From contig JAWOKN010000056.1 in NCBI GenBank assembly GCA_033854175.1, positions 3,736 through 67,735 on the forward strand: a stretch of DNA of 64,000 bases, given 5' to 3'. This document shows, in pieces, positions 2,541 through 47,365 of the stretch; within the stretch, counting starts at the first letter, position 1, and each line of letters starts with the position of its first letter. A program made the translations under genes and the position numbers. The stretch comes from Bacteroidota bacterium (lineage in GTDB: Bacteria > Bacteroidota > Ignavibacteria > UBA10030 > SZUA-254). The notes below the pieces were generated by a model that saw only the letters and a program-made list of their open reading frames with translations, was not told where the DNA came from and did not search any database.

Positions 2541-3344
2541 TGCAATGCCATCTGCAGTGCTTCGACGACTGCCTCGGCATGCATGTGAATTGGAAGGAAT
2601 GTGCGAACTTGCGACCGATAGGGACAGGTCCCCCCGCCAAGCTGCCGGTTTCCCGGCAGAATAATCTTTGGACAGGCTCCGACCATCATTCTGAATCCAG
2701 ATGGTGGCGGCCTGCGCCTCCTGCATGAAACGAGCCCTATCCTGTTCCGACGCCGAGAGATGGGCCGGAAGGAACTTCAGTGCGACGAACCATCTGAGCT
2801 TGAACCCTCGCGGCCTTATAGACCACTCCCATGCCCCCTTCGTCCAGCTTCTCAAGAACTTTATACCGTGACAGAGTTCGTCCGATCATGAACATCTCTT
2901 GATGAAATATTGCGATATTCGGCTATTGCGAGAGGCAGGTCGTGAATGAATACCAAATCATCCGCTCTCCGTGATCCTCCCCGGAAACGATTCCCCTAAT
3001 CCACCGAGCGGTGACATAAGTCACCCGGGAATTCCATGATCTTCCGGCAGGACCCTGACGATGTCGGAGTATCCGACCCTTCGGCCCGCCCGAGATGGAT
3101 GACACTGTTGTGCTCCCCCCACAGCCGCGTCATTCTTCCGGCGACCGGAACAAGAAATCAGACAAATGAGTATAGATCGAGTCGTAGCCGTATGATCCAA
3201 CACCCCGGTTTGCCGGCATGAAGAAAACGGGAAGATCTCTGAAGAACGGTGCACGGGGTGCGGCTCTTCACCCAAACAGGTCTCACACTTGAGAGATGTA
3301 GATCCCGATCCCCCCGGAAACCAATCGCACGGGGCAACAGAATA

Positions 3345-3360
3345 TGGTGCGCAATTTGCT
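3345..3360 (+). promoter_or_regulatory. Candidate sigma-54 (-24/-12) promoter for the multiheme cytochrome
   Basis: 'TGGTGCGCAATTTGCT' fits TGGYRYR-N4-TTGCW with GG-N10-GC spacing. It lies about 95 nt upstream of the ATG at 3454. Confidence 0.45.
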
Positions 3361-3453
3361 CGAACATATGCCGACAGAACCGCGTCCAGATCGGTCGCGG
3401 GTGCGGTCGAAATACCTCATAACATTGCGACCGGAGAGAGAAGGAGTGCGAGT

Positions 3454-5205
3454 ATGGACAAGAATACATATTTTCGCGGAGGCGCCTGTTTTTTTCTGTT
3501 ACCCATTGTTTTCATCCTTTCCCCAACCCACCTACGAGCCCAATCAGCGCTGCCATGCTACGCATGCCACAGCGGGGAGAACGACAACTGGCTGCTCGGC
3601 CGGCATGCAAACACCCAGAAGGACGTCGCAGGCGAGATCGCTGCTAACTGGCAGGGGCAGACGCCAGATTCCGTCATCCACGGCTCGGCTGCGGAGAACT
3701 GTGTAGCATGTCATTCCCCGCTTGCCGTCACGACAAACGGCGGGATGACCGAAACGCAGGTGATGGGACATTACTTCACCACGACCGGCGGTTTCTACAC
3801 TGATTCCACGCAGGCCGCGGATACGGCCAACTGGCCGCATGTCGGCTGCAACACCTGTCATGACGTTCCGTCGAACCATACGAGCCATGTGTTACCGACG
3901 CTTGCGATTTTCAATTCAACGACGGCACAATACGACTCGATGCCGACGACGGCCACGCTCTGCGGACAGTGTCACGGAACGCTGAGATTCGCGGAAACCG
4001 ACCATCGGATATTCGATGCGTGGAAACTCAGCCGGCACGGGCACAGGGGCCAATCGGACGTCGCGGGCGAGCTCGCCGGAAGCTGGGCGGGCAAAACACC
4101 CAATGACGTCATCAACGGGCCCGATGCGGAAAACTGCGTCGCCTGCCATGCTCCGACGGCGGTCGGTCAAAAATCCGGGGACACAACGGAGGTCATGGTC
4201 TTAAGCCGGTTCTTCACGACCTCGGGCGGGCAATTTACTGCAGGAACGGCCCCTTCCGACACGGCCCACTGGCCTGATGTCAGCTGCACCGCATGTCACG
4301 ACCCACATCGGCCGGACACACTTTCGTACTACAACACATCGACGAGGACGTACCAGGTCATGGCCTCATCAAACCAGTTATGCGGCCAATGCCACGGCAA
4401 CCTCAGGTTTGCCGGTACTGACCATTTAAGCTACAACGTGGAAGAAGCCATCGGTGGAGTCGGTGTGGCGGCCCAGGCGACCATGCCCGGCGCCGGGTGC
4501 ACGGATTGTCACATGCACAAGGGTGAAACGGACGGAACAAACTCACTCATGTACAAGGGGCACAGCTGGTCCATCTTCATCCACGAACCGGACAGCAGCA
4601 CAACCGCCTCCTGCACATCATGTCATGCGGGAATGAACGCCGATTCCTCCAAAACGGTCATCGCCGGCTGGAAGGCCGAATTTGCCTCGACGGACTCACT
4701 CGCCCAGTTACGGGTTGCCTCAGCAGACTCGGCGCTGCAGGGAATAACCGATTCCGTCAGGCAGGCATATCTTGCGGAAGCAAAGAGCAACCTGAGTCTT
4801 GCGGAATCGGACGAAAGCGGCGGATTCCACAACCACAAATACAGTATGGCGCTCCTGAACGACGCCATTGCGAAATCGGCACTCATCACCGGAGTAACGA
4901 TGCCGCAGGCGAATCTCCCGCTGCGGTTCGCGTTACATCAGAACTACCCGAATCCCTTCAATCCATCGACCATCATCCGGTATGAGATCCCCCTTGAAAG
5001 CAGAGTGGCCCTGAAGGTCTACAATGTTCTGGGACAGACCGTGGCAATACTGCGGGAGAACGTAGAATCAGCGGGGTACAAAATTGTAGAATGGACTGCG
5101 GCAGGCATGCCAAGCGGCATATACTTCTGTCAGCTCCAGGCAACGAGCACCTCGCATCCCGTCAAGGCCTACAGTCAGGTCATGAAGATGCTTCTTATTA
5201 GATAA
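3454..5205 (+). CDS. Secreted nonaheme cytochrome c with a C-terminal T9SS sorting domain
   Basis: An AAGGAG ribosome-binding site precedes the ATG at 3454, followed by a signal peptide (FFLLPIVFILSPTHLRA). There are nine CxxCH motifs (CYACH, CVACH, CNTCH, CGQCH, CVACH, CTACH, CGQCH, CTDCH, CTSCH). An internal ~150-aa tandem duplication is present (DVAGEIAANWQGQTPDSVIHGSAAENCVACH… vs DVAGELAGSWAGKTPNDVINGPDAENCVACH…). The C-terminus 'NYPNPFNPSTIIRYEIP…KVYNVLGQTVA' is a type-A T9SS CTD. Confidence 0.85.
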   Translation: MDKNTYFRGGACFFLLPIVFILSPTHLRAQSALPCYACHSGENDNWLLGRHANTQKDVAGEIAANWQGQTPDSVIHGSAAENCVACHSPLAVTTNGGMTETQVMGHYFTTTGGFYTDSTQAADTANWPHVGCNTCHDVPSNHTSHVLPTLAIFNSTTAQYDSMPTTATLCGQCHGTLRFAETDHRIFDAWKLSRHGHRGQSDVAGELAGSWAGKTPNDVINGPDAENCVACHAPTAVGQKSGDTTEVMVLSRFFTTSGGQFTAGTAPSDTAHWPDVSCTACHDPHRPDTLSYYNTSTRTYQVMASSNQLCGQCHGNLRFAGTDHLSYNVEEAIGGVGVAAQATMPGAGCTDCHMHKGETDGTNSLMYKGHSWSIFIHEPDSSTTASCTSCHAGMNADSSKTVIAGWKAEFASTDSLAQLRVASADSALQGITDSVRQAYLAEAKSNLSLAESDESGGFHNHKYSMALLNDAIAKSALITGVTMPQANLPLRFALHQNYPNPFNPSTIIRYEIPLESRVALKVYNVLGQTVAILRENVESAGYKIVEWTAAGMPSGIYFCQLQATSTSHPVKAYSQVMKMLLIR

Positions 5206-5493: not shown

Positions 5494-7386
5494 TTACATC
5501 ACAAAATGAGACACAACGCCGCCGACAAAAAAGGCCACGACCCAGGTACCGATCCAGATCACCATCCCCTCCCTCCAGCCCCTCTCTTTGAGCATCACCA
5601 TCAGTGAAGCGATGCACGGGACAAAGAGGGTAATGACGATAAGCGAAACGGCAATCTGCATCGGGTTGAGGGACATATGGTACAGACCGGCCGCGCCGAA
5701 ATCTCGGCGGACGACGCCCATAATAAATGCGACAGCGGCCTCCGGGGGCAGCTGGAGCCAGTGGACGACCAGGGGGGTAAGTTCGTGCTCGAGAAGATCC
5801 AGCAAACCGGTAAGCTGTGCGATACCGACCGCGAGTGCGCCCACAAAAAACCAGCCCGAGGCCTCCTTCATGAAATAATATGTCCGGACGGCGGTTTTCC
5901 TGAAGACATTTTCCATACGGGGCAATCTCATCGGCGGGAGATCCAGAAGAAGCGGGGCTGACGAGCCCGGCAGGACCCGGTCGAGCATCGTTCCGATAAG
6001 GACCAGAACGGCAAGGATCACCAGGACATAGACAGCGATCGGGCCCGGGCCCGCACCCGCAAGGAGCGCGGCGATGACGGCCATCTGGGCGGAGCAGGGG
6101 ATGACAAACTGAAGAATTGCGGTGGCAATCGTCTTCTCGCGTTCAGAGCCGAGGAGGCGTGTAGTAATCGTTGCGGAGGTCACGCAGCCGAAGCCGAGAA
6201 TCAGCGGAATGACGGCCCTTCCGTTCAGGCCGAGGTAGGTCAGAATGCGGTCCACCATCGTCGCCAGCCGCGGAAGGTACCCGCTATCCTCCATCAGAGA
6301 AAGAACGATATAGAACGAAATCACGAGCGGAAGCAGAAGAAAAAGAAGATACGTTGTGGTCATGGTCACAACGCCGTAAGGACCGACAAGGAGTGTATAC
6401 CACCATGATGAGGGAGAAATCAGGGTGGCGGTGATCGTGCGGATCCACGGTTCCCAGAGATTGTTACCGATCCGCTGCTCGGTAAAATTCACAACCAGCT
6501 GGGAAACAAACTTTCCGATAAAGAGATAGGCGACATACAATGCGGCGACAAGGATAGGGATCCCCGTGGAGGGCTTCAGGGCCCAGCGGCCGAGCCTGTC
6601 GGAAAACCGTCTTTTCGGGGAAGTATCCTGCATGACCTGGTTCACGAGATAATTCACCCGGTTGCGGCGGCTGATATAAATCTCATCGCGGAGCGTGCCG
6701 GGATTGACGCCGTGGCGCCGGGCGACAAACTGGTCCCCCTCGAGGACCAGCAGGGCCTCGGATTGTGAGCCGACCATGGAAAGGGTCTCATGGAGGTGGC
6801 CGTGGAGTTCCTCGCGCTGGGTCCCCTCGCGGGCGCCCAGGATGGCCTGATCGAGTTTTTCCAGCGTGACGCCGTTCACGGCGGTAACGGGAATGACACT
6901 GACGCCCAAAAAATTCGAAAGCTTCGGAATGTCGATACTGATATGAAAATCCCTCACCTCGTCCATAAAATTCAGCAGCACCGTAATCTTCTTCCCCATA
7001 TCGATCAGCTGCTGGGTCAGAAACAGGTCCCGTTCGAGGTGTGTCGCATCGACAACATTCAGAACAATATCCGCGTCGAGGATGATATCGCGGGCGGCTT
7101 TCTCCTCATCATTAAACGACGAGACCCCATAGATGCCGGGTGTATCGAAGACATCATAATCGCGGTAGGAACCGCAGACAAGTTCGACGGTAGTCCCCGG
7201 ATAATTCGAGACATCGACATTCATACCGGAAAGGGTATTAAAAATGATCGATTTCCCGACATTGGGATTGCCGGCAAGGACAATTTCCACGCGTCCGGTC
7301 TGTTTGCGGGGGGATCTCAGGCCGGGATGCTGGTGTCTATCCGAATGTTCCAGCGGGGGGCGGGATAAAGGATCATCTGGTGTCAT
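5494..7386 (-). CDS. feoB: Ferrous iron transport protein B
   Basis: Carries the N-terminal G-protein motifs (GNPNVGKS, DTPG, NFMD) and a long polytopic membrane domain. A GTG at 7290 would give the canonical 'MEIVLAGNPNVGKS' N-terminus, so the ATG at 7386 may be an over-extension. Confidence 0.9.
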   Translation of the reverse strand: MTPDDPLSRPPLEHSDRHQHPGLRSPRKQTGRVEIVLAGNPNVGKSIIFNTLSGMNVDVSNYPGTTVELVCGSYRDYDVFDTPGIYGVSSFNDEEKAARDIILDADIVLNVVDATHLERDLFLTQQLIDMGKKITVLLNFMDEVRDFHISIDIPKLSNFLGVSVIPVTAVNGVTLEKLDQAILGAREGTQREELHGHLHETLSMVGSQSEALLVLEGDQFVARRHGVNPGTLRDEIYISRRNRVNYLVNQVMQDTSPKRRFSDRLGRWALKPSTGIPILVAALYVAYLFIGKFVSQLVVNFTEQRIGNNLWEPWIRTITATLISPSSWWYTLLVGPYGVVTMTTTYLLFLLLPLVISFYIVLSLMEDSGYLPRLATMVDRILTYLGLNGRAVIPLILGFGCVTSATITTRLLGSEREKTIATAILQFVIPCSAQMAVIAALLAGAGPGPIAVYVLVILAVLVLIGTMLDRVLPGSSAPLLLDLPPMRLPRMENVFRKTAVRTYYFMKEASGWFFVGALAVGIAQLTGLLDLLEHELTPLVVHWLQLPPEAAVAFIMGVVRRDFGAAGLYHMSLNPMQIAVSLIVITLFVPCIASLMVMLKERGWREGMVIWIGTWVVAFFVGGVVSHFVM

Positions 7387-7678
7387 GGGGAACTTCGTCG
7401 ATGACCGTCACGAGAATACTCCGTGCAAGTGTGTGGCCGATAGCGATCTGCTGTCGGTTTTTCTGGAGAACGATGGTTCCGCCCGGGAGGCGTTCCAGGC
7501 ATTTGACGCGCTGCCCTTCATGGATCCCCAGCCGGACGAACTGGGGGTAATAATCGCCGCCGGGGACCGAATGAATCTTCAACAATTGACCGACCTTGGT
7601 TTCGCTCATAGAGACGGGTTTCTTGCGGCTCTTCTTGTCAGTCATGATATCATATCGATTAAATTCAAACATACTCAC
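7373..7678 (-). CDS. feoA: FeoA-family small protein
   Basis: SH3-like FeoA pattern (VGQLLKIHSV…GIHEGQRVKCLERLPGGTIVLQ…IAIG). The likely true start is the internal Met at 7609 (MSETKVGQ…). Confidence 0.75.
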   Translation of the reverse strand: MSMFEFNRYDIMTDKKSRKKPVSMSETKVGQLLKIHSVPGGDYYPQFVRLGIHEGQRVKCLERLPGGTIVLQKNRQQIAIGHTLARSILVTVIDEVPHDTR

Positions 7679-7703
7679 CTATTATCGGCAATTATTGTGC
7701 CAC

Positions 7704-7729
7704 AAATCGGATAAATCTATCCAATATTT
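7704..7729. promoter_or_regulatory. Operator-like motif upstream of feoAB, related to the palindrome that follows the Rrf2 gene
   Basis: 'AAATCGGATAAATCTATCCAATATTT' shares the core ATCGGATAAATCTATCCnATATT with 45231..45256. Confidence 0.4.
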
Positions 7730-32619: not shown

Positions 32620-33303
32620 GTGAAAATGACAGTCATATTCGTAATAGCGACGATTATATTCTTCCTCACGCTTGATTGGGTTGTGAGGCGGATAAGGGCA
32701 AGAAAAGCAGCACCGGTAACTGCGGTACACCCGTCGGCATATCCGATACGTGTACCGGAGGGGATATTCTTCACCAGATCGCACACCTGGCTCAATCTTT
32801 TCCCCTCGGGGAAAGTACGGCTCGGAATCGATGATTTTGTGGGCCGCATGGTAGAAAACCCGCAGATCATTTTCCTCAAGAAAAGCGGCGAGAGTATCTC
32901 CCGTGGAGAGCCCCTGTTGACGATGAAGGAAGACGAGCATCTGCTGACCGTCAGATCGCCGATCGACGGGGAGATCGAATCGATCAACGAGGAACTCCCG
33001 CGGCATCCCGACCTTTTGAAGGACCTCCTTTTCAGTGACGGCTGGGCATACACGATCAAGCCGAGAAAGTTCTCTGAAATCAAGGGCTTACTTCTCGGGA
33101 CAGAGACGAGGGAATGGATGCGGGCGGAATTCGGCCGTCTGCGTGATTTCTTTGCGGGGATCTCTCACAACGGCACAATAGCCCCGGCCCTCCTGCAGGA
33201 CGGCGGGCCGCCGATGGCGGGCGTCATGAAAACGATGGACGACGCGGTGTGGCAGAATTTCGAGCATGAGTTCCTCACGATCGAAGAATCTGAAAGGGCA
33301 TAG
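32620..33303 (+). CDS. Membrane-anchored GcvH-fold (glycine-cleavage H-protein-like) protein with the lipoyl-lysine position substituted
   Basis: N-terminal transmembrane helix followed by RRIRARK, so the domain is cytoplasmic by the positive-inside rule. A gapless alignment to GcvH (…LPEVG…ESVKAASDIYAPVSGEI…GW.FKIK) places Glu at the lipoyl-Lys position, with a Lys 3 residues earlier. Confidence 0.5.
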   Translation: MKMTVIFVIATIIFFLTLDWVVRRIRARKAAPVTAVHPSAYPIRVPEGIFFTRSHTWLNLFPSGKVRLGIDDFVGRMVENPQIIFLKKSGESISRGEPLLTMKEDEHLLTVRSPIDGEIESINEELPRHPDLLKDLLFSDGWAYTIKPRKFSEIKGLLLGTETREWMRAEFGRLRDFFAGISHNGTIAPALLQDGGPPMAGVMKTMDDAVWQNFEHEFLTIEESERA

Positions 33304-33305
33304 CG

Positions 33306-34124
33306 ATGGCGAGTGCGAAGGCGATGTTAATCGACCTCACGATGTGCATCGGGTGCAATTCGTGTCAGGATGCCTGCAAGAAGGCAAACGGTTTACCCGA
33401 AGGGGAGGAACAGCAGTTATCGGCAACCGCCTATACGGCGCTCAATGAATACAACGGCGTCTATGTCCGGAGGATGTGTCAGCACTGCATCCAGCCGACC
33501 TGTGCATCGGTCTGTCCCGTTGGTGCGTTGAAAAAGACGCCCGAGGGGCCTGTCCTCTACGACGAATCGAAGTGTATCGGCTGCCGGTACTGCATGCAGG
33601 CATGTCCGTTCCAGGTGCCTAGGTACGAGTGGAGCAGCACCTATCCGAGAATCCAGAAATGCCGCTTCTGTGCGGAGAGGCTTGCGAAGGGGATGCCCAC
33701 GGCATGTTCGGAGGCATGTCCGACGGGTGCGACAAAATTCGGCGACCGGGACGAACTGGTGCGCGAGGCCTACCAGCGGATATCCGCGGAACCGGGGAAA
33801 TACATCGACAAGGTCTACGGCCTCCAGGAAGTCGGAGGGACGTCAATACTGTACCTCTCCTCGGTTCCGTTCGAGCAGCTGGGATTCAAGACCCAGCTGG
33901 AGTCCAACGCGCTGCCGCTCCTCACGTGGAACGTGCTGTCGAAGATTCCGAACGTGGTCAGTGTCGGCGGAGTGGCGCTCTTCGGCATCTGGTGGATCAC
34001 CAACCGCCGGATGGAACTCGAGAAAGAGCGAAAAAACGGCCGGGCAAACGGTACGGCGCCGGGGGATGACCATCATTCCCGGAAAGAACAAACCCAACAA
34101 ACCGAGAATGGAGAGAGAGTATGA
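33306..34124 (+). CDS. 4×[4Fe-4S] ferredoxin-type subunit of the NrfC/HybA/PsrB/DsrO family with a C-terminal transmembrane helix
   Basis: Four Cys clusters (CIGCNSCQDAC; CQHCIQPTCASVCP; CIGCRYCMQACP; CRFC…CSEACP). No Tat (RR) signal. C-terminal helix VVSVGGVALFGIWWI. Confidence 0.8.
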   Translation: MASAKAMLIDLTMCIGCNSCQDACKKANGLPEGEEQQLSATAYTALNEYNGVYVRRMCQHCIQPTCASVCPVGALKKTPEGPVLYDESKCIGCRYCMQACPFQVPRYEWSSTYPRIQKCRFCAERLAKGMPTACSEACPTGATKFGDRDELVREAYQRISAEPGKYIDKVYGLQEVGGTSILYLSSVPFEQLGFKTQLESNALPLLTWNVLSKIPNVVSVGGVALFGIWWITNRRMELEKERKNGRANGTAPGDDHHSRKEQTQQTENGERV

Positions 34125-35323
34125 AACGCAGACTTCAGCAACTGACACTCTGGAAGGTCGTCGCCGGGCTGATCATCCTCAGCGGCCTCATATCAACCTA
34201 CGTCCGTTTCGCAAAAGGGCTGGGGGCGGCGACGCACCTGAGCGATCAATTCCCGTGGGGATTATGGATCGGGTTTGACATCCTGTGCGGCGTGGGGCTT
34301 GCGGCCGGGGGGTTCACGCTGGCTGCGATCGTCTACATCTTCAACATCAGGCGGTTTGAAGCGATCATCCGGCCGACCATCTTGACGGCATTCCTCGGCT
34401 ATCTCCTTGTGATTGCCGCGCTGATGTTCGATCTCGGGCGGCCGCTGCAGATATGGCATGCGATCATCATGTGGAACCATCACTCGGTCATGTTCGAGGT
34501 CGCGTGGTGCGTCATGCTCTACACGACAGTTCTCGCCCTTGAATTTTCGCCGATGCTCTTTGAAAAATTCAGGATGAACAACACGCTGAAGACATTCCAC
34601 AAAATCAGCATACCGCTCATTATCCTCGGGGTGATCCTCTCGACGCTGCACCAGTCGTCGCTCGGCTCGCTCTACCTCATCGTGCCCGAGAAGCTCTACG
34701 GCCTCTGGTATTCCGCCTATCTGCCGGTATTCTTCTACGTCTCGGCGATCGCGGTCGGCTGTGCGATGGTCATCTTCGAATCCATCCTGAGTTCCCGGGC
34801 GTTCCGGAAGAGCCTGGAAACGAACCTCCTTGCGGAGCTGGCCCGCATCAGCGTCGTGGCGCTCGCCGTTTACGCCACGATGAAGATCGTCGACTTGAAG
34901 GACCGCGACGTCATCAGCCTCCTCTTCCTCCCCCGCGCCGAGACCTATTTTTACTGGGCTGAGATCACCGTCGGGGTCATCGCACCGATCATACTTTTCT
35001 CCATCAGAAAAGCCCGTGAGAGTCAGACGGGGTTATTCGCCGGGGCCACGATGATCATCACCGGGTTCATCATGAACCGTCTCAACATCAGTCTGACGGG
35101 GATGGAAGGCTGGGCCGGTCTTTCCTACTTCCCGTCATGGATGGAAATTTCCGTCACCCTCACCATCGTCACGGTGGGGTTCATTGCATTCCGGCTTGCG
35201 GCCAAATATCTGCCGGTGTTCAAGCCCGAACTGAACGTTCCCGAAAAGGAATTCGCACACCCGATCGTCGAGGATCTCCACAGCGTCTCATCGTCGCGGG
35301 AACGCTCGATGATACTGGAATAA
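34121..35323 (+). CDS. NrfD/HybB/PsrC/DsrP-family polytopic membrane subunit (quinone-interacting)
   Basis: About 10 predicted transmembrane helices with NrfD-family N-terminal helix signatures. The start overlaps the Fe-S subunit stop by 4 nt. Confidence 0.8.
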   Translation: MKRRLQQLTLWKVVAGLIILSGLISTYVRFAKGLGAATHLSDQFPWGLWIGFDILCGVGLAAGGFTLAAIVYIFNIRRFEAIIRPTILTAFLGYLLVIAALMFDLGRPLQIWHAIIMWNHHSVMFEVAWCVMLYTTVLALEFSPMLFEKFRMNNTLKTFHKISIPLIILGVILSTLHQSSLGSLYLIVPEKLYGLWYSAYLPVFFYVSAIAVGCAMVIFESILSSRAFRKSLETNLLAELARISVVALAVYATMKIVDLKDRDVISLLFLPRAETYFYWAEITVGVIAPIILFSIRKARESQTGLFAGATMIITGFIMNRLNISLTGMEGWAGLSYFPSWMEISVTLTIVTVGFIAFRLAAKYLPVFKPELNVPEKEFAHPIVEDLHSVSSSRERSMILE

Positions 35324-35328
35324 TTGTC

Positions 35329-36087
35329 ATGAACGAGAATCAAAAAAATTACACAATCATCCCTGAAGGAGACTCCCGGTGTGTCTGGATGTCGGCCGGG
35401 ATCCTCAGCTACCAGCTCTGCAACCGCGCATTCGACTGCGACGCATGTCCGCTCGACATGGCGATGCGGCAGCACTTCCCGCGACCCGAGGGGGAGAAGG
35501 ATGAGGCGGCGCCAGGCAGGGAGCGTGAGGAAACAGAACTCCGCGGCGCGTACAGTTACACGGCAACGCATTTCTGGGTAAAGTCGATCTCCACCTCGCT
35601 CTACCGTGTGGGACTTGAACCGGGGATAGCCCACGCATTATTCGTCCCGCGGACCATCGTCTTGCCCGCCTCGGGTGAAACGCTCCAGGCATCGCAGCCC
35701 TGTCTCTGGTTCGTGATGGAGGCCGCGACCGTCCCCTTCGACGCATTCGCCGACGGCGTGGTTGTGACGCAGAATGTGCTCTTGCCGGAGCGGCCCTACA
35801 AAGTCCATTACCATCCGTACGACCAGGGATGGCTCTTTGACATGAAGTTCGACGCAGCGGGGGGTGAGCCGGATCTCCTGACCGCGGTCCAGGCGGAGAA
35901 ACTCTACGGCAGGGACCAGAAACTCTTCCGTGACAGGCTCCGCGACACGCTACAGACCGCGCCGGCTGGAGCGACACTCCAGGACGGCGGACAGCTTTTG
36001 AAAAATCTCCCTGAAATGCTCGGACCGAAGAAATACTTCGATCTCATCGAGGAGATCTTTCTGAAAAGGGGTGTCACAAAAAAATAA
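35329..36087 (+). CDS. Cys4 N-terminal domain fused to a GcvH-fold domain with the lipoyl-lysine position substituted
   Basis: N-terminal 'CVWMSAGILSYQLCNRAFDCDACP', then 'YTATHFWVK…GLEPG…LPASGETLQASQPCLWFVMEAATVPFDAFADGVVV…PYDQGWLFDMKF'. A gapless GcvH alignment puts Ala at the lipoyl-Lys position. ATG at 35329. Confidence 0.5.
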   Translation: MNENQKNYTIIPEGDSRCVWMSAGILSYQLCNRAFDCDACPLDMAMRQHFPRPEGEKDEAAPGREREETELRGAYSYTATHFWVKSISTSLYRVGLEPGIAHALFVPRTIVLPASGETLQASQPCLWFVMEAATVPFDAFADGVVVTQNVLLPERPYKVHYHPYDQGWLFDMKFDAAGGEPDLLTAVQAEKLYGRDQKLFRDRLRDTLQTAPAGATLQDGGQLLKNLPEMLGPKKYFDLIEEIFLKRGVTKK

Positions 36088-36332
36088 CCCGCCGCGAACA
36101 GGCTGGACGGGGGTACCGCTCACCCGGGGGTGTACAGGGGTGGGCGGTAGTTATTCGGGGTGGGGGTGATCCGGTAAAACCACCTTTAACCATTTTGTGA
36201 TAAAATCCCCGAATTCATTTCAAATCTGATAACTCCGGGGGAAAAGACGGGCCGGAGAGAAGCCAAATCTCCGTTTTTCAGTATCATCTCAACCCCCTTT
36301 ATGGCACGAGAATTGACGATAACGGAAATGGT

Positions 36333-37982
36333 ATGAAGGCATTCCGTTCGCTCAGTGTGAGGGTATTTGCGGGGTCATTTCTCCTCCTTGTGACCCTCCT
36401 GGGGCTCTATTCCTATTTTGCGATAAAGTTTCACACCGAACAGATGATGGAGATCGTCCTGGGAAACGCAAGCCGCATCAGCGACATCATCAAGAACTCG
36501 ACCCACTACAGCATGCTCCTCAACAGGAAGGAGGACGTCTACCAGACGATCCTCACCATCGGCAAGGAAAAGGGGGTTGAAGGGATACGGATTTACAACA
36601 AGCGGGGAGAAATCATGGCCTCCTCCCGCACCGAAGAAAAACTGCAGATTGTCGACATGCATGCTGAAGCCTGTTACGTCTGCCATGAGAAGGGAAAACC
36701 CCTGGAATCGCTCGCATCGGACAACAGGATGCGGATCTACACCTCCCCGAAGGGGTACAGGGTACTGGGTTTGATCAACCCCATCCACAACGAGCCAAGC
36801 TGTTCGAATGCCGATTGCCATGCTCATCCGCCTGATAAAACCATACTCGGTGTACTCGACGTTCGGATGTCGCTGGAAAACGTCGACACGGCAATCGCCG
36901 AAGCGCACGCCAAGATGATCAGCTGGGCGGTCGGGGGAGTTCTCCTTGCATCGCTCCTCATCTCGGTCCTCCTCTACAGAACCGTGCATCGGCCCGTCAA
37001 GCGGCTCACGCTGGGGACGCATGAAGTCTCCTCCGGCAACCTCGATCTCCGGATACCCATACACTCGAAGGACGAACTGGGGCAGCTTGCCGAATCGTTC
37101 AATTCGATGACGACCTCATTGCGCAACCTCATTGAAGAGAAAAACACCTGGTCGCGCGAGCTGGAGGAGCGGGTCCGTGAAAAAACCGCCGAGTTGAAGC
37201 ACATTCACGAGCAGATCCTGCAGATTGAAAAGATGACATCGCTCGGGAAGCTCGCGGCGACCGTTGCGCACGAACTGAACAACCCCCTGGAAGGGATCCT
37301 GACCTACGCGAAGCTCCTGGCGAAGCAGCTCAGGAAAGCCGAATTCTCTGCGGACCGGTCAAAGGAATTTCTCGAGGAACTCAATCTCATCATCCAGGAA
37401 ACGGACCGGTGCGGAACGATCGTGAAGAACCTCCTCCTCTTTTCCCGGAAGCAGGTCGGCGAATTCGCGCTTGCGCCTGCGCGGCAGATCGTGGAGAAGG
37501 CCCAGCGTCTCGTGGATCACCACTTCCACATCTCCAACGTGAAATTCGAGGCCACGTACGCGCCTGAGGACGTGTCGCTCATGTGCGACGAAATGCAGAT
37601 CCAGCAGGCCTTGATTGCGCTCTTTGTCAACGCGGTTGAAGCCATGCCGGGGGGCGGCACACTGCGCGTCGATGTCTCGCAGCGTTCGAAGGATGACAAC
37701 ATCATCCTCCGCATTTCGGACACCGGTACGGGGATAGCGGAGGAGGATCTCCACAACATCTTCGAACCATTTTTCACAACAAAAAAGGAGGGTCAGGGTG
37801 TCGGCCTCGGCCTCTCGGTTGTCTACGGCATCGTCGTCCGTCACGGCGGCACGATCAGTGTGGAGTCGAGTCTCAACAAGGGAACGGCATTCACGCTGAC
37901 CTTCCCGGCGCTTGAGCGGAGCACCAAGGGAATCCCGGAGCCGGAGGCGAAAAAATCACCCATTGATCCACACTATGCATAA
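36333..37982 (+). CDS. Sensor histidine kinase with a periplasmic domain carrying heme-c-type motifs
   Basis: Transmembrane helix 1 (FAGSFLLLVTLLGLY), then a ~150-aa periplasmic domain containing 'CYVCH' and 'CSNADCH', then helix 2 and HAMP. The H-box is HELNNPL and the HATPase has a G-box (DTGTGI…GQGVGLGL). Confidence 0.8.
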   Translation: MKAFRSLSVRVFAGSFLLLVTLLGLYSYFAIKFHTEQMMEIVLGNASRISDIIKNSTHYSMLLNRKEDVYQTILTIGKEKGVEGIRIYNKRGEIMASSRTEEKLQIVDMHAEACYVCHEKGKPLESLASDNRMRIYTSPKGYRVLGLINPIHNEPSCSNADCHAHPPDKTILGVLDVRMSLENVDTAIAEAHAKMISWAVGGVLLASLLISVLLYRTVHRPVKRLTLGTHEVSSGNLDLRIPIHSKDELGQLAESFNSMTTSLRNLIEEKNTWSRELEERVREKTAELKHIHEQILQIEKMTSLGKLAATVAHELNNPLEGILTYAKLLAKQLRKAEFSADRSKEFLEELNLIIQETDRCGTIVKNLLLFSRKQVGEFALAPARQIVEKAQRLVDHHFHISNVKFEATYAPEDVSLMCDEMQIQQALIALFVNAVEAMPGGGTLRVDVSQRSKDDNIILRISDTGTGIAEEDLHNIFEPFFTTKKEGQGVGLGLSVVYGIVVRHGGTISVESSLNKGTAFTLTFPALERSTKGIPEPEAKKSPIDPHYA

Positions 37983-37997
37983 CCTCACAGAAAACGT

Positions 37998-39344
37998 ATG
38001 AACAACGATATATCCATACTCATTGTCGACGATGAAAAGGTCGTCCGCGAATCCCTCTCGAAGTGGTTCAAGGAAGACGACTTCATCGTGGGCGCATCAG
38101 AAAACGCGGCTGAAGCCCTGAAACAGCTCCAGGTGCGGAAATGGGACATCATTCTCCTCGACATCAAAATGCCGGGGATGGACGGGATGGAGTTACAGCA
38201 GCGAATCCGGGAGATCGACCCCGGAGCGACGATCATCTTCATCACGGCGCACGCCTCGGTCGACACGGCGGTCCAGGCCCTGAAGGCGGGGGCGTTCGAT
38301 TACATCGCGAAGCCGATCGACCCCGACTACCTGTCGCATCTGATCCAGAACGCCATCAAGCAGCGGATCCTGACGGGAGAAAACATCCGTCTGAAGGAGC
38401 AGATCACCGAATTCGCGAAAGTCGATGAGATCATCGGCGACTCCCCGCAGATGAAGAAGGTCTTCGAACTGATCGAAACGGTGGCAAAGACCGACACGAC
38501 GGTCATGATCCGGGGCGAAAGCGGAACGGGGAAGGAGCTCATCGCGCGGGCGATTCACGGCAACAGCGAACGGCGGTATTTTCCCATCGTCGCCATCAAC
38601 TGCGGGGCATTGCCGGAGGGAATACTGGAAAGCGAACTCTTCGGTCATGAGCGGGGTGCGTTTACCGGGGCGCAGTACAGGAGAAAGGGAAAAATCGAGC
38701 TGGCCGACGGCGGCACATTATTTCTTGACGAGGTCGGCAACATCGGGATGAAGACCCAGATGGACCTCCTCCGTGTAATCGAGACAAAGCAATTTTCGCG
38801 TGTCGGGGGAAACGAGCTGATCAAGGTGGACTTCAGGACCATCTGCGCGACAAACAGGGATCTCGAGAAGGCCGTTCAGGAGGGCACCTTCCGTGAAGAC
38901 CTCTATTACCGTCTCAACGTCTTCTCCGTCCTCGTCCCCCCCTTGCGCGAGCGGAAGTCGGACATCCCCCTGCTGGCAAATTACTTTTTGAAAAAATACT
39001 CGCGATCGATGGGGAAGCCGATCGTGACCATCTCCTCGGACGCGATGGATCTGATGGTCAAATACAACTGGCCCGGGAACATCCGCGAGCTGGAAAACGC
39101 GATAGAGCGGGCGATGGTGGTCGGAAAGCCCCCCTGCATCAAGGCGGTGGATCTGCCGATACAGTTCTCCGATCTCATTGCGGCACCTTCGCTCGGATCT
39201 CTGGCATCGATGGAAAAAAGCCACATCGCCGAGATCCTCCGGATGAACAACTGGAACATCTCCCGGTCCGCGGAAGTCCTGCAGATCGACCGGGTCACTC
39301 TCTACAACAAGATCGAAAAATATGGCCTGAAAAAGCCGCAGTGA
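37998..39344 (+). CDS. Sigma-54-dependent response regulator (NtrC family)
   Basis: Receiver domain (LIVDDE…D54-like 'ILLDIKMPGMDG') plus an AAA+ sigma-54 activator (GESGTGKE, 'ESELFGHERGAFTGA') and a C-terminal HTH. Confidence 0.9.
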   Translation: MNNDISILIVDDEKVVRESLSKWFKEDDFIVGASENAAEALKQLQVRKWDIILLDIKMPGMDGMELQQRIREIDPGATIIFITAHASVDTAVQALKAGAFDYIAKPIDPDYLSHLIQNAIKQRILTGENIRLKEQITEFAKVDEIIGDSPQMKKVFELIETVAKTDTTVMIRGESGTGKELIARAIHGNSERRYFPIVAINCGALPEGILESELFGHERGAFTGAQYRRKGKIELADGGTLFLDEVGNIGMKTQMDLLRVIETKQFSRVGGNELIKVDFRTICATNRDLEKAVQEGTFREDLYYRLNVFSVLVPPLRERKSDIPLLANYFLKKYSRSMGKPIVTISSDAMDLMVKYNWPGNIRELENAIERAMVVGKPPCIKAVDLPIQFSDLIAAPSLGSLASMEKSHIAEILRMNNWNISRSAEVLQIDRVTLYNKIEKYGLKKPQ

Positions 39345-44772: not shown

Positions 44773-45228
44773 ATGAGCATATTTTTTAGCCGTCAATGCG
44801 AGTACGCCCTTCAGGCGGTCATGTACATCGCCCTCAAACCGGAGAACGAGATGAGTTCGATCCGCGAGCTGTCGCGGACGCTCGGCATCCCGTATCATTT
44901 CCTTGCAAAAATCCTCCAGGACCTCACGCGGAAAGGATTGCTGACATCCCTGAAAGGTTCCACCGGCGGGTACATGCTTGCGATGCCGAAGGAAACCATC
45001 ACACCGTTCCACATCGTCGATGCCATTGACGGATCAAGTTTTCTGAACAATTGTCTCCTCGGTTTTTCATCCTGCTCAAGCGAAAAACCGTGCGCGTTGC
45101 ATTCCCAATGGGAGGGTATGCGGGAGAAACTCAATACCATGCTGAAATCGACCAACATCTATGAGGCGGCGCTCAGCATGAAGAAACCGCAATATCTCCA
45201 TAATCAACCCGGGCCAAGCACCACCTGA
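44773..45228 (+). CDS. Rrf2-family transcriptional regulator, IscR/NsrR/RirA-like with Cys ligands
   Basis: N-terminal HTH (…ALQAVMYIAL…SSIRELSRTLGIPYHFLAKILQDLTRKGLL…KGSTGGY) and a 'CLLGFSSCSSEKPC' three-Cys cluster. Confidence 0.85.
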   Translation: MSIFFSRQCEYALQAVMYIALKPENEMSSIRELSRTLGIPYHFLAKILQDLTRKGLLTSLKGSTGGYMLAMPKETITPFHIVDAIDGSSFLNNCLLGFSSCSSEKPCALHSQWEGMREKLNTMLKSTNIYEAALSMKKPQYLHNQPGPSTT

Positions 45229-45230
45229 TG

Positions 45231-45256
45231 AATATCGGATAAATCTATCCGATATT
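45231..45256. promoter_or_regulatory. Perfect 11-bp inverted repeat operator-like site immediately after the Rrf2 gene stop
   Basis: AATATCGGATA-AATC-TATCCGATATT. The core recurs upstream of feoAB at 7704..7729. Confidence 0.45.
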
Positions 45257-45522
45257 GGCACAGATGTTGCACTACTAGAGCTGAAGAAATACAAAGGCCG
45301 GTTCTTCCCTCTGTATTAGAGACCTTTTTGATCATCAGAAGAATCCCTTTTTTAAGAATGAGAAATCAGCAGTTTACGGCTATAAGAAGTGACACCGTGC
45401 CCCCTCCTTCCGCTGCATTTGCCGTTGCACCGCAAAATGGACTATCCCCGTATAAAGCCGAAGGCGCCAGGTCCGGGCGTCTGAGTATAAAAAAGCTCTC
45501 ACCCGCGCTCCGCAAACCGAAA

Positions 45523-46578
45523 ATGGGTTACCGGAACGAAACAGGCATACGCCGAATCCTCCTGAGGCTCAGGGAAGATTCACAGTTCCTCCGTTCGGTC
45601 ATACAGACAGCGTTCCTGCTGCTTTGCATCTGGATCGGGATAGAGTTCTATTTATTCGTGAAATGGGGTGCCTCGGGAGGTGTGGAGGCCTATCATATGC
45701 GGCCTCCCGGTGTGGAAGGATTTCTGCCGATCAGCGCTCTGATCAGCCTGAAATATTTCCTGCAGACCGGCATCATCAACAGCGTCCATCCCTCGGGATT
45801 ATTCATCTTCGCAGCGATTCTGGTAATAGGATTTTTCTTTAAAAAAGCCTTCTGCAGCTGGCTCTGTCCGATCGGCACAATAAGTGAATCCCTCTGGACC
45901 TTCGGCCGGAAACTCTTCGGGAAAAATATCGTCCTACCCCGATGGCTCGATTATCCGCTCCGTTCCATCAAATACCTGCTCCTGTTGTTTTTTGCCTACA
46001 TCATCTGGAGCATGAGCATCGATGGCCTCCAGTTTTTCATACAAAGCCCGTACAACCAGGTAGCAGACGTCAAGATGTACTACTTTTTCGCACGGATCAG
46101 CACCTTTGCCCTCTGGACCATCATCATCCTTGCGATCCTGTCGGTCTTCATCAAAAACTTCTGGTGCCGGTATCTCTGTCCCTACGGAGCGCTCCTGGGC
46201 ATCACCGGATTATTCAGTCCGTTAAAGATCACGCGGAATACGACAACATGCATCGACTGCGAACTCTGCACGAAAGTCTGTCCGGCCAGCATCAGGGTCC
46301 ACGCGCTGAAGAAGGTGAGAAGTGATGAATGCATGAGCTGTCTTGAATGCGTGCAGATCTGTCCGGTAAAAAACACACTTGAAGTTCAGCCCCCCGCGGG
46401 GAACGCGAAAGTCCCCGGATGGATCTTCGGGCTTCTCGTCGCCGGGGTATTCGTCGGGATCACCGGTCTTGCGATGCTCGCCGGGCACTGGCAGAATTCA
46501 ATCACAAAGGCAGAATACCTGAACCACTTCCGGAACATCGAATCCCACGTCTATTCCCATGAAGACGCGATCCGATAA
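45523..46578 (+). CDS. NapH/MauN/NosR-like polytopic membrane protein with ferredoxin-type and CxxCP motifs
   Basis: 'FCSWLCPIGT', 'WCRYLCPYGALLG', 'CIDCELCTKVCP' and 'CMSCLECVQICP'. The start was taken at the ATG at 45523; the ORF is open from 45328. Confidence 0.65.
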   Translation: MGYRNETGIRRILLRLREDSQFLRSVIQTAFLLLCIWIGIEFYLFVKWGASGGVEAYHMRPPGVEGFLPISALISLKYFLQTGIINSVHPSGLFIFAAILVIGFFFKKAFCSWLCPIGTISESLWTFGRKLFGKNIVLPRWLDYPLRSIKYLLLLFFAYIIWSMSIDGLQFFIQSPYNQVADVKMYYFFARISTFALWTIIILAILSVFIKNFWCRYLCPYGALLGITGLFSPLKITRNTTTCIDCELCTKVCPASIRVHALKKVRSDECMSCLECVQICPVKNTLEVQPPAGNAKVPGWIFGLLVAGVFVGITGLAMLAGHWQNSITKAEYLNHFRNIESHVYSHEDAIR

Positions 46579-47365
46579 ATCTCTCCGGGCGTTTTACGAC
46601 ACTCTGGCGCCGGACTACGACCTGATGACGGCATTCAACGATCGCGTCGCGAGAGAGGAGGAATTCTTCCGTTTCCTTGCAAAAAAATATCACATTCGCA
46701 CCGCAATCGATGCAGGCTGCGGGACGGGAGTTCACTCGATACTTCTTGCCAGGCTGGGCGTGAAGGTCACTGCTGTGGACATATCGCGGAAAATGATCAC
46801 GGCGACGAGAGCCAATGCACAAAAATTTCACCTCCCGATAAGAGGAGTAGAATCGTCATTCGGTGAAATGGCAAAAAAATTGGATACCGTCGCCGACGCC
46901 CTCTTTTGCATGGGAAATTCCCTGGCGCACATGCTGACGGAGGAGGAATTACTCGACAGCCTGGCAAATTTCCGTGCACTCCTCAGGCCGAAGGGACTTT
47001 TGGTACTCCAGCTGGGAAATTACGACCGAATACTCAAAGAGAGGGCACGTCTGCAGCATGTGAGGGATTCCGGAGGAAAAAGCTTCGTGCGATCGTACTG
47101 CTACCTTCAATCTTTAATATCCTTCAGTATAGATATCAAGACTTCAGCCAGGGGGAGAACATTGAAGAACATCAGAATAAAGCTGAACCCAATCCGCAGC
47201 GGATATCTTCAAAGGCTCCTCATCCGGTCAGGATTCACAGTGATGGCAGAATACGGAAGCCTGCAAAAGGAGCCATTTTCGAAGGGTAGGTCGCGCGATG
47301 TAATCATCCTGGCCAAAAAGGCATACATGCGAATCTTTTCCTCATTTCCTGCATCATATAGATGA
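46559..47365 (+). CDS. Class I SAM-dependent methyltransferase
   Basis: Motif I 'IDAGCGTGVHSILLA' plus motif II/III context. Confidence 0.75.
   Translation: MKTRSDKSLRAFYDTLAPDYDLMTAFNDRVAREEEFFRFLAKKYHIRTAIDAGCGTGVHSILLARLGVKVTAVDISRKMITATRANAQKFHLPIRGVESSFGEMAKKLDTVADALFCMGNSLAHMLTEEELLDSLANFRALLRPKGLLVLQLGNYDRILKERARLQHVRDSGGKSFVRSYCYLQSLISFSIDIKTSARGRTLKNIRIKLNPIRSGYLQRLLIRSGFTVMAEYGSLQKEPFSKGRSRDVIILAKKAYMRIFSSFPASYR

Follow-up and report, generated by a model that had tools for sequence, protein, structure and literature searches.

RirA, a rhizobial Fe-S protein of the Rrf2 family, represses iron-uptake genes at iron sufficiency, and its operator, the IRO box, is given as TGA-N9-TCA. 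For the type-1 operator of IscR the consensus is reportedly ATASYYGACTRwwwYAGTCRRSTAT, which is said to go back to the work of Giel and colleagues in 2006. Sigma-54 promoters require an AAA+ enhancer-binding protein. Holo-IscR represses from its type-1 sites (PMC4055776), and in Myxococcus xanthus the holo form of RisR, a [4Fe-4S] Rrf2 protein, represses by promoter occlusion from an imperfect palindrome, TkGAC-N7-GTCCw with AT-rich flanks (PMC9973013). BosR of Borrelia binds just upstream of, and adjoining, the sigma-54 promoter of rpoS and is needed for its activation (PMC3037356).

The DNA analyzed here, a stretch of 64 kb that we refer to as the window, carries an Rrf2/operator pair that, according to well-supported computational comparisons, would belong to the known class of Rrf2 repressors and operators, and whose unusual conserved feature would be its fusion to sigma-54 promoters. 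Our literature searches returned no Rrf2 regulator acting at a sigma-54 promoter, nothing relevant on Rrf2 proteins in Ignavibacteria, and no report of the Rrf2 subfamily found in the window or of its motif. To our knowledge, essentially no transcription-factor sites are known for the Ignavibacteria/Bacteroidota concerned here, anaerobes rich in uncultured members. The analysis thus provides a testable regulon and an operator logo for an Rrf2 subfamily that is widespread in these bacteria.

The palindrome and its linkage to Rrf2 genes

An earlier note on this DNA had described a perfect 11-bp inverted repeat directly after the stop codon of an Rrf2 gene, and this repeat is indeed present (Table 1): the 11+4+11 palindrome AATATCGGATA-AATC-TATCCGATATT starts at the third base past the TGA stop codon (45226-45228). 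The same note had reported that its core recurs upstream of feoAB at 7704..7729. Such a copy exists 58 bp 5' of the feoA start, but it occupies positions 7703-7728 and, as CAAATCGGATAAATCTATCCAATATT, deviates from the 26-mer at three positions. When both strands of the window were searched with up to three mismatches, these two sites were the only matches to the 26-mer; 100 dinucleotide shuffles gave none, so that the chance expectation is none.

Table 1. Coordinates of the operators, genes and predicted promoters discussed in the text
Feature	Position	Strand	Remarks
Predicted operator 1	45231..45256	n/a	perfect 11-4-11 palindrome; 22-bp core TATCGGATAAATCTATCCGATA at 45233-45254; 26.0 bits
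Predicted operator 2	7703..7728	n/a	imperfect copy; 22-bp core 7705-7726; 23.5 bits
Rrf2-family regulator gene, 151 aa	44773..45228	+	PF02082 E=1.5e-30; winged HTH; Cx6Cx5Cx2H cluster motif
NapH-like membrane polyferredoxin gene	45349..46578	+	Fer4_5 x2 and 4Fe-4S dicluster; conserved primary target (predicted)
SAM-dependent methyltransferase gene	46559..47365	+	Pfam Methyltransf_25/11; 20-nt overlap with the NapH-like gene
feoA (7645-7373) and feoB (7386-5494), overlapping	5494..7645	-	Pfam FeoA, FeoB_N, Gate, FeoB_C; ferrous iron uptake
Predicted sigma-54 promoter TGGCAC-agatg-TTGC	45256..45270	+	exact match; -24/-12; 1 nt past operator core
Predicted sigma-54 promoter TGGCAC-aataa-TTGC	7688..7702	-	exact match; toward feoA; 2 nt from core
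Histidine kinase (36333-37982) and NtrC-type sigma-54 response regulator (37998-39344)	36333..39344	+	candidate activator pair (inferred)

To follow the motif beyond the window, we built a symmetrized 22-bp matrix (8+6+8) from ten sites adjoining sigma-54 promoters, namely both window sites and those of the related loci L001, L005, L006, L009, L026, L028, L034 and L045. Within the window the two operators alone reach at least 14 bits, and hence the palindrome is not a dispersed repeat; the equivalent of operator 2 in L105, a close relative, is retained at 24.8 bits. A weak dyad at 3156-3177 (9.5 bits), with a perfect left half AATCAGAC and a poor right half, is probably not significant; it precedes a gene for a multihaem cytochrome with a T9SS C-terminal sorting domain (3289-5205, plus strand).

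Homologues of the window's Rrf2 protein with up to 94% identity are encoded in metagenome-assembled genomes of Ignavibacteria/Bacteroidota, and a scan with one genome per species added 80 more loci whose Rrf2 proteins are 46-78% identical (best match 78%). Scanned at 14 bits or more, 1.37 Mb of the relatives' DNA gave 119 matches versus 9 in shuffled sequence, and nearly all of them lie 2-30 nt before the ATG of an Rrf2 gene or just past its stop codon. The earlier note had reasoned that a dyad occurring at many unrelated sites would speak for a repetitive element; what we found are the two copies in 64 kb and only 19 matches away from Rrf2 genes in 1.14 Mb of relatives' DNA (training loci excluded). 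In 60 of the 74 loci that were not used for training, a site of at least 14 bits is present in the 80 bp before Rrf2 or in the 300 bp after it; it lies upstream in 36 and downstream in 45 of these 73-74 loci, and on both sides in 21. The position of the orthologous site is kept across species whose proteins share 46-94% identity.

The consensus dyad derived from these sites is WWT[C/A][A/G]GAY-N6-RTC[T/C][G/T]AWW. In the logo of 94 sites, the arm W-W-T-[C/A]-[A/G]-G-A-[C/T/G] is followed by six AT-rich bases and the mirrored arm, with G6/A7 and T16/C17 being essentially invariant. A dyad, as expected by the earlier note for an Rrf2 site, is thereby confirmed, but its functional core measures 22 bp (8+6+8) instead of ~25–29 bp. 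Among 99 distinct sites, the two arms match at the rates expected from independence at every variable position, and only five have fully complementary arms. Arms that vary independently point to selection on each half-site, and therefore to the site of a dimeric protein and not to base pairing. Judged from the sequence context across species, the adjacent Rrf2 Fe-S regulator very probably binds the DNA at this palindrome; the earlier proposal of a putative Rrf2 operator is thus sustained by footprinting, with the dyad at the Rrf2 borders in most of the independent loci, and by the conserved helix and ligands of the protein. A Fur box, whose consensus is GATAATGATAATCATTATC, was considered and rejected since the motif is unlike it and tracks the Rrf2 gene.

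The regulator itself passes the cut-offs of PF02082 (106.5 bits; cut-off 30) and of TIGR00738 (108.5 bits; cut-off 73.3), the latter being the sole NCBIfam model passed and one that assigns it at the superfamily level. It does not reach the NCBIfam equivalog cut-offs for IscR (TIGR02010, 71.0 vs 207.55 bits; NF008110, 50.5 vs 275 bits), RirA (59.3 vs 193) or NsrR (50.8 vs 182 bits), and it also stays below those for CymR (42.8 vs 195) and suf_reg (68.9 vs 110.65). Its Cx6Cx5Cx2H motif aligns with the [2Fe-2S] ligands C92/C98/C104/H107 of E. coli IscR (structures 4hf0-4hf2) and is invariant among about 80 orthologues, in agreement with the earlier description of a Cys-liganded Rrf2 protein. The predicted recognition helix reads IPYHFLAKILQDL; among the about 80 orthologues, which range from 46% to 94% in overall identity, the helix IP[Y/F]HFLAKILQDL is nearly constant, as would fit a single conserved operator. 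The neighboring genes encode PFOR, DHOD-like, NapH-like and methyltransferase proteins; neither the annotated parts of the window nor the L001-L005 gene tables contain isc or suf genes. As the protein fails the curated cut-offs, differs from IscR in the base-contacting residues and is not encoded with isc/suf, sequence comparison sets it apart as a distinct Rrf2 subfamily.

Some genomes harbor two Rrf2 paralogues (L018, L021, L050 and L052). In L050 (10001-10423 and 16021-16431), one paralogue lies near the HK-RR54-peptidase cluster and is without an operator, while the other is flanked on both sides by operators and accompanied by NapH-like and methyltransferase genes; the window has a single Rrf2 gene in a merged cluster.

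Predicted targets and their promoters

Both window operators adjoin exact matches to the pattern TGGCAC-N5-TTGC, each oriented toward its downstream gene, and these abutting sigma-54 promoters went unnoticed in the earlier note. Both also fit the fuller form TGGCAC-N5-TTGCW, in which GG and GC are 10 nt from each other. The predicted transcription starts are at about 45281-45283 for the NapH-like promoter and at about 7677 for the feoA promoter, so that the center of the dyad is located near -38 in both cases. The feoA promoter of L105 is conserved as TGGCACagtaaTTGT. Among the 67 orthologous regions between Rrf2 and the NapH-like gene, 13 keep TGGCAY and TTGM around a 5-nt spacer that varies, and the composite of operator and -24 element, with a gap of 0-4 nt, was found in about 19 cases. 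Across the window the sigma-54 pattern is not enriched (5 found vs 3.2 expected), and its support is consequently positional and comparative; for the same reason a third exact match (57261-57247), which lies inside a coding region and lacks a dyad, is taken as a chance occurrence. As no rpoN gene turned up in the 64 kb of the window, we infer the use of sigma-54 from the promoter matches and the gene for an enhancer-binding protein; judged by its sequence, the window's genome seems to use this sigma factor widely.

The variant TGGCAY-N5-TTGA occurs at 36302-36316 (plus strand), 17 nt before the histidine kinase gene, where it is conserved in L001, L003 and L006. It is also found on the minus strand at 25530-25515, about 145 nt before the glutamate dehydrogenase gene (25370-24003), and at 19725-19710, at the annotated start of the alanine dehydrogenase ORF (19714-18542).

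The gene following the repeat had been described as one for a NapH/NosR-like membrane Fe-S protein. This description holds: its product contains Fer4_5 and 4Fe-4S dicluster domains and is NapH/MauN/NosR-like, with scores below the NapH/MauN cut-offs (TIGR02163, 89.9 vs 213; NF007013, 84.4 vs 234 bits). A sequence search of the PDB yielded generic ferredoxin domains only, nap genes were likewise absent from the annotated window parts and the L001-L005 gene tables, and a literature search for 'NapH-like' together with 'Rrf2' found nothing. Given the 20-nt overlap of the two genes, the methyltransferase gene is probably co-transcribed with the NapH-like gene. The Rrf2/NapH-like pair is adjacent in 67 fetched loci (tblastn), usually with the methyltransferase gene coming after it, and the NapH-like/methyltransferase operon is the predicted universal target.

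In L013, L016 and L033, the Rrf2 gene is immediately preceded by feoA-feoB. An operator at feoAB occurs only in the window species, in L105 (FeoB 90% identical) and in L033, where the site precedes feoA; when 21 FeoB loci from metagenomes were scanned, only L105 had the operator, and FeoB loci with an identity of 71% or less were without it. The iron/Fe-S regulon advanced in the earlier note is therefore plausible in a narrow form: the feoAB site speaks for it, but that site is limited to close relatives and L033, isc/suf genes are missing from the picture, and the universal target is a different one. The feoAB promoter region is bordered immediately upstream by two minus-strand genes, one for a PLP enzyme of Cys/Met metabolism (9139-7811) and one for a radical-SAM/SPASM protein with weak similarity to AhbD/NirJ (10125-9136). 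In L011 (15924-15945) and L017 (16352-16373), an operator is followed after 2 nt by CGG[C/T]AC-N5-TTGT ahead of the gene for a 632-aa GltD-like Fe-S flavoprotein, which is possibly an extra member of the regulon with a degenerate sigma-54 promoter.

The same operator is found with other promoter classes. In L056, L057, L059 and L063, it begins 2 nt past the -10 box of the sigma-70-like promoter TTGCAT-N18-TATATT. In a clade of 60-65% identity it is placed about 6 nt past a T-run ending in TTTG, an element that appears reminiscent of the Bacteroidota -7 element. Together with the sites upstream of Rrf2 itself (2-30 nt before the ATG), these are classic repressor geometries.

The genes of close relatives follow one another in the order histidine kinase, NtrC-type sigma-54 response regulator, archaemetzincin-like peptidase, PFOR, DHOD-like, Rrf2, NapH-like and methyltransferase. 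The response-regulator orthologue contains Response_reg, Sigma54_activat and HTH_8 domains, and its NCBIfam matches are AtoC/NtrC-like and below cut-off. Of the 13 Rrf2-NapH loci with sigma-54-type promoters, six have the orthologous kinase/regulator pair no more than 10 kb away, versus 1 of 54 others (Fisher p=1e-4, a statistic uncorrected for phylogeny). This co-occurrence makes the pair the best candidate for the activator, and the NtrC-type regulator probably activates the window's sigma-54 promoters. A non-coding block at 7784-7760 (minus strand), TCAAAGATGATA..CCTCCC, precedes the feoA -24 box by 60-85 nt and is conserved between the window and L105, although the flanking DNA has diverged; it may be an enhancer for the sigma-54 activator. 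No other conserved block was seen before feoA in this comparison. As to an enhancer motif common to both sigma-54 promoters, reading by eye showed nothing before the NapH-like promoter that clearly corresponds to this block. Rrf2-type dyads are also present in L001 (1369-1390) and L003 (1361-1382), where they precede the sigma-54 promoter of the kinase/regulator operon by 160-180 bp and could serve anti-activation at the enhancer; in the window, no site of at least 9 bits is found upstream of this operon (36087-36300) or of PFOR.

Directly upstream of the kinase gene, a cluster at 32620-36087 (plus strand) encodes a GCV_H-like protein, a Fer4_11 4Fe-4S protein, an NrfD-like membrane protein and a second GCV_H-like protein; L001 and L003 show synteny for the last two of these genes. 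It is unusual to find glycine-cleavage-H-like domains paired with a polysulfide-reductase-type module.

Proposed mode of action and alternative explanations

We consider it likely that a cluster-bound Rrf2 dimer at the 22-bp dyad represses the sigma-54 promoters of the NapH-like/methyltransferase operon and of feoAB, and that loss of the cluster derepresses them. The dimer would contact half-sites of the type WWT[C/A][A/G]GAY through its winged helix-turn-helix domains, across the 6-bp AT-rich spacer. Spanning about -27 to -49, it would collide with sigma-54 at -24 or with the docking ATPase, and bound Rrf2 would thereby keep sigma-54 RNA polymerase or the enhancer-binding ATPase from the promoter and hold both the NapH-like polyferredoxin/methyltransferase operon and feoAB in a repressed state. 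The signal would be the occupancy or integrity of the Fe-S cluster, the holo-protein being the form that binds and represses, so that iron limitation or oxidative damage would strip the cluster and derepress Fe(II) uptake and the polyferredoxin operon. For enhancer-binding activation, transcription would in addition depend on a second protein, probably the NtrC-type response regulator encoded in this gene cluster. Repression at sigma-54 promoters is the most economical reading since regulator, operator and target are orthologous to those of the clades with repressor geometry, and the spacing jitter of 0-4 nt is easier to reconcile with steric hindrance than with an activator that depends on phase. 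That the cluster provides the signal is probable as the protein retains the three Cys and the His ligands of IscR, and the cluster-bound form probably is the one that binds, by analogy with holo-IscR at type-1 sites and with holo-RisR. Counting against repression, the operator is located upstream of -24 and does not cover -24 to +1, which is not the classic position for occlusion.

This placement, at a near-fixed distance from the -24 element, would also suit an Rrf2 protein that binds the dyad and acts positively, as an architectural or co-activating factor in an IHF-like or BosR-like manner, with the bound state being the active one. Such a role would have a parallel in BosR, a Fur-family protein that adjoins the -24/-12 promoter of rpoS on its upstream side and is required for activation (PMC3037356). 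We nevertheless hold a positive role to be unlikely, given that the NapH-like genes of other clades have the operator over the start region of sigma-70-like promoters in a repressor geometry, that a jitter of 1-2 nt speaks against strict face-of-helix demands, and that the Fe-S Rrf2 proteins acting on such dyads, RisR and IscR at type-1 sites, are repressors. A different protein altogether would be involved if the dyad were the enhancer (UAS) of the NtrC-type response regulator encoded at 37998-39344. In the window the dyad always stands beside a sigma-54 promoter, its copies in L001 and L003 are at a typical enhancer distance from the promoter of the kinase/regulator operon, and this regulator has an HTH_8 DNA-binding domain. 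Yet 54 Rrf2-NapH loci, most of them with a dyad, are without a sigma-54 promoter, 53 of these 54 are without an orthologous regulator within 10 kb, the position of the dyad tracks the borders of the Rrf2 gene, and a center at -38 is too near for enhancer looping. The dyad hence follows the Rrf2 gene and not the response regulator; this distribution excludes an NtrC-type binder, and we give the enhancer explanation a very small chance.

Folded as RNA, the palindrome reaches -16 kcal/mol (z = -3.25) and it starts right past a stop codon, as might be expected of a hairpin at which the Rrf2 transcript is terminated or processed. There is, however, neither a U-tract nor a terminator call, the arms vary independently and are rarely fully complementary across the distinct sites, and copies are also found 5' of genes, Rrf2 itself included; a function as RNA or DNA hairpin is extremely improbable. 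AT-rich composition alone could be held to produce a chance palindrome, and a dispersed repeat or the end of a mobile element might likewise leave copies. Zero matches expected from shuffled sequence, the mere two copies in 64 kb and an orthologous position conserved between species at 46-94% protein identity allow us to dismiss these explanations almost entirely.

Repression by cluster-bound Rrf2, the reading that we prefer, leads to a wider proposal: in Ignavibacteria the operator-target pair would have been re-wired onto sigma-54, sigma-70-like and T-rich promoters, Rrf2 would gate sigma-54 promoters directly, and feoAB and the polyferredoxin operon would be under dual input. We regard the chances of this proposal as even. 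If true, expression of feoAB and the polyferredoxin would need two inputs, a two-component activator and relief from Rrf2 repression, and a putative IscR-like cluster sensor would connect ferrous iron uptake with a conserved NapH-like polyferredoxin. The locus would then offer a natural case in which a small, putative repressor sits right at the -24 element of sigma-54 promoters, and another in which promoter classes have changed while the operator stayed the same; both can help to understand the integration of negative inputs at sigma-54 promoters.

Comparison with known systems

IscR likewise is an Rrf2 protein with a winged helix-turn-helix domain whose three Cys and one His ligands, C92/C98/C104/H107, align with those of the window's protein, and its type-1 operator, like that of the window, is a dyad that spans about 24 bp and combines a GAY...RTC core with AT-rich ends. 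The spacer of the IscR site is one bp longer than that of the window operator, and the base-contacting residues of IscR are exchanged in the window's protein (S40 to H, E43 to A, Q44 to K). Unlike IscR, the window's regulator has no linkage to isc/suf, and its predicted targets are the NapH-like operon and feoAB with their sigma-54 promoters. RisR represents an independent Rrf2 subgroup with a similar operator architecture (GAC-N7-GTC, AT-rich flanks), in which the N7 spacer compares with N6 between GAY and RTC in the window operator. Its cysteines, C92/C102/C108, differ from the Cx6Cx5C plus His arrangement found here, as do its targets, isc and suf, which are served by sigma-70 promoters. 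Functionally, RirA is the system closest to the logic proposed for the window, although its operator, the IRO box, and the phylum in which it occurs are different. The promoter arrangement finds its counterpart in BosR of Borrelia burgdorferi, where the site of a metalloregulator is likewise set against the -24/-12 element of a sigma-54 promoter. BosR, however, is a Fur-family protein that recognizes direct repeats and acts positively, whereas the regulator in the window is an Rrf2 protein with an inverted repeat and probably acts negatively.
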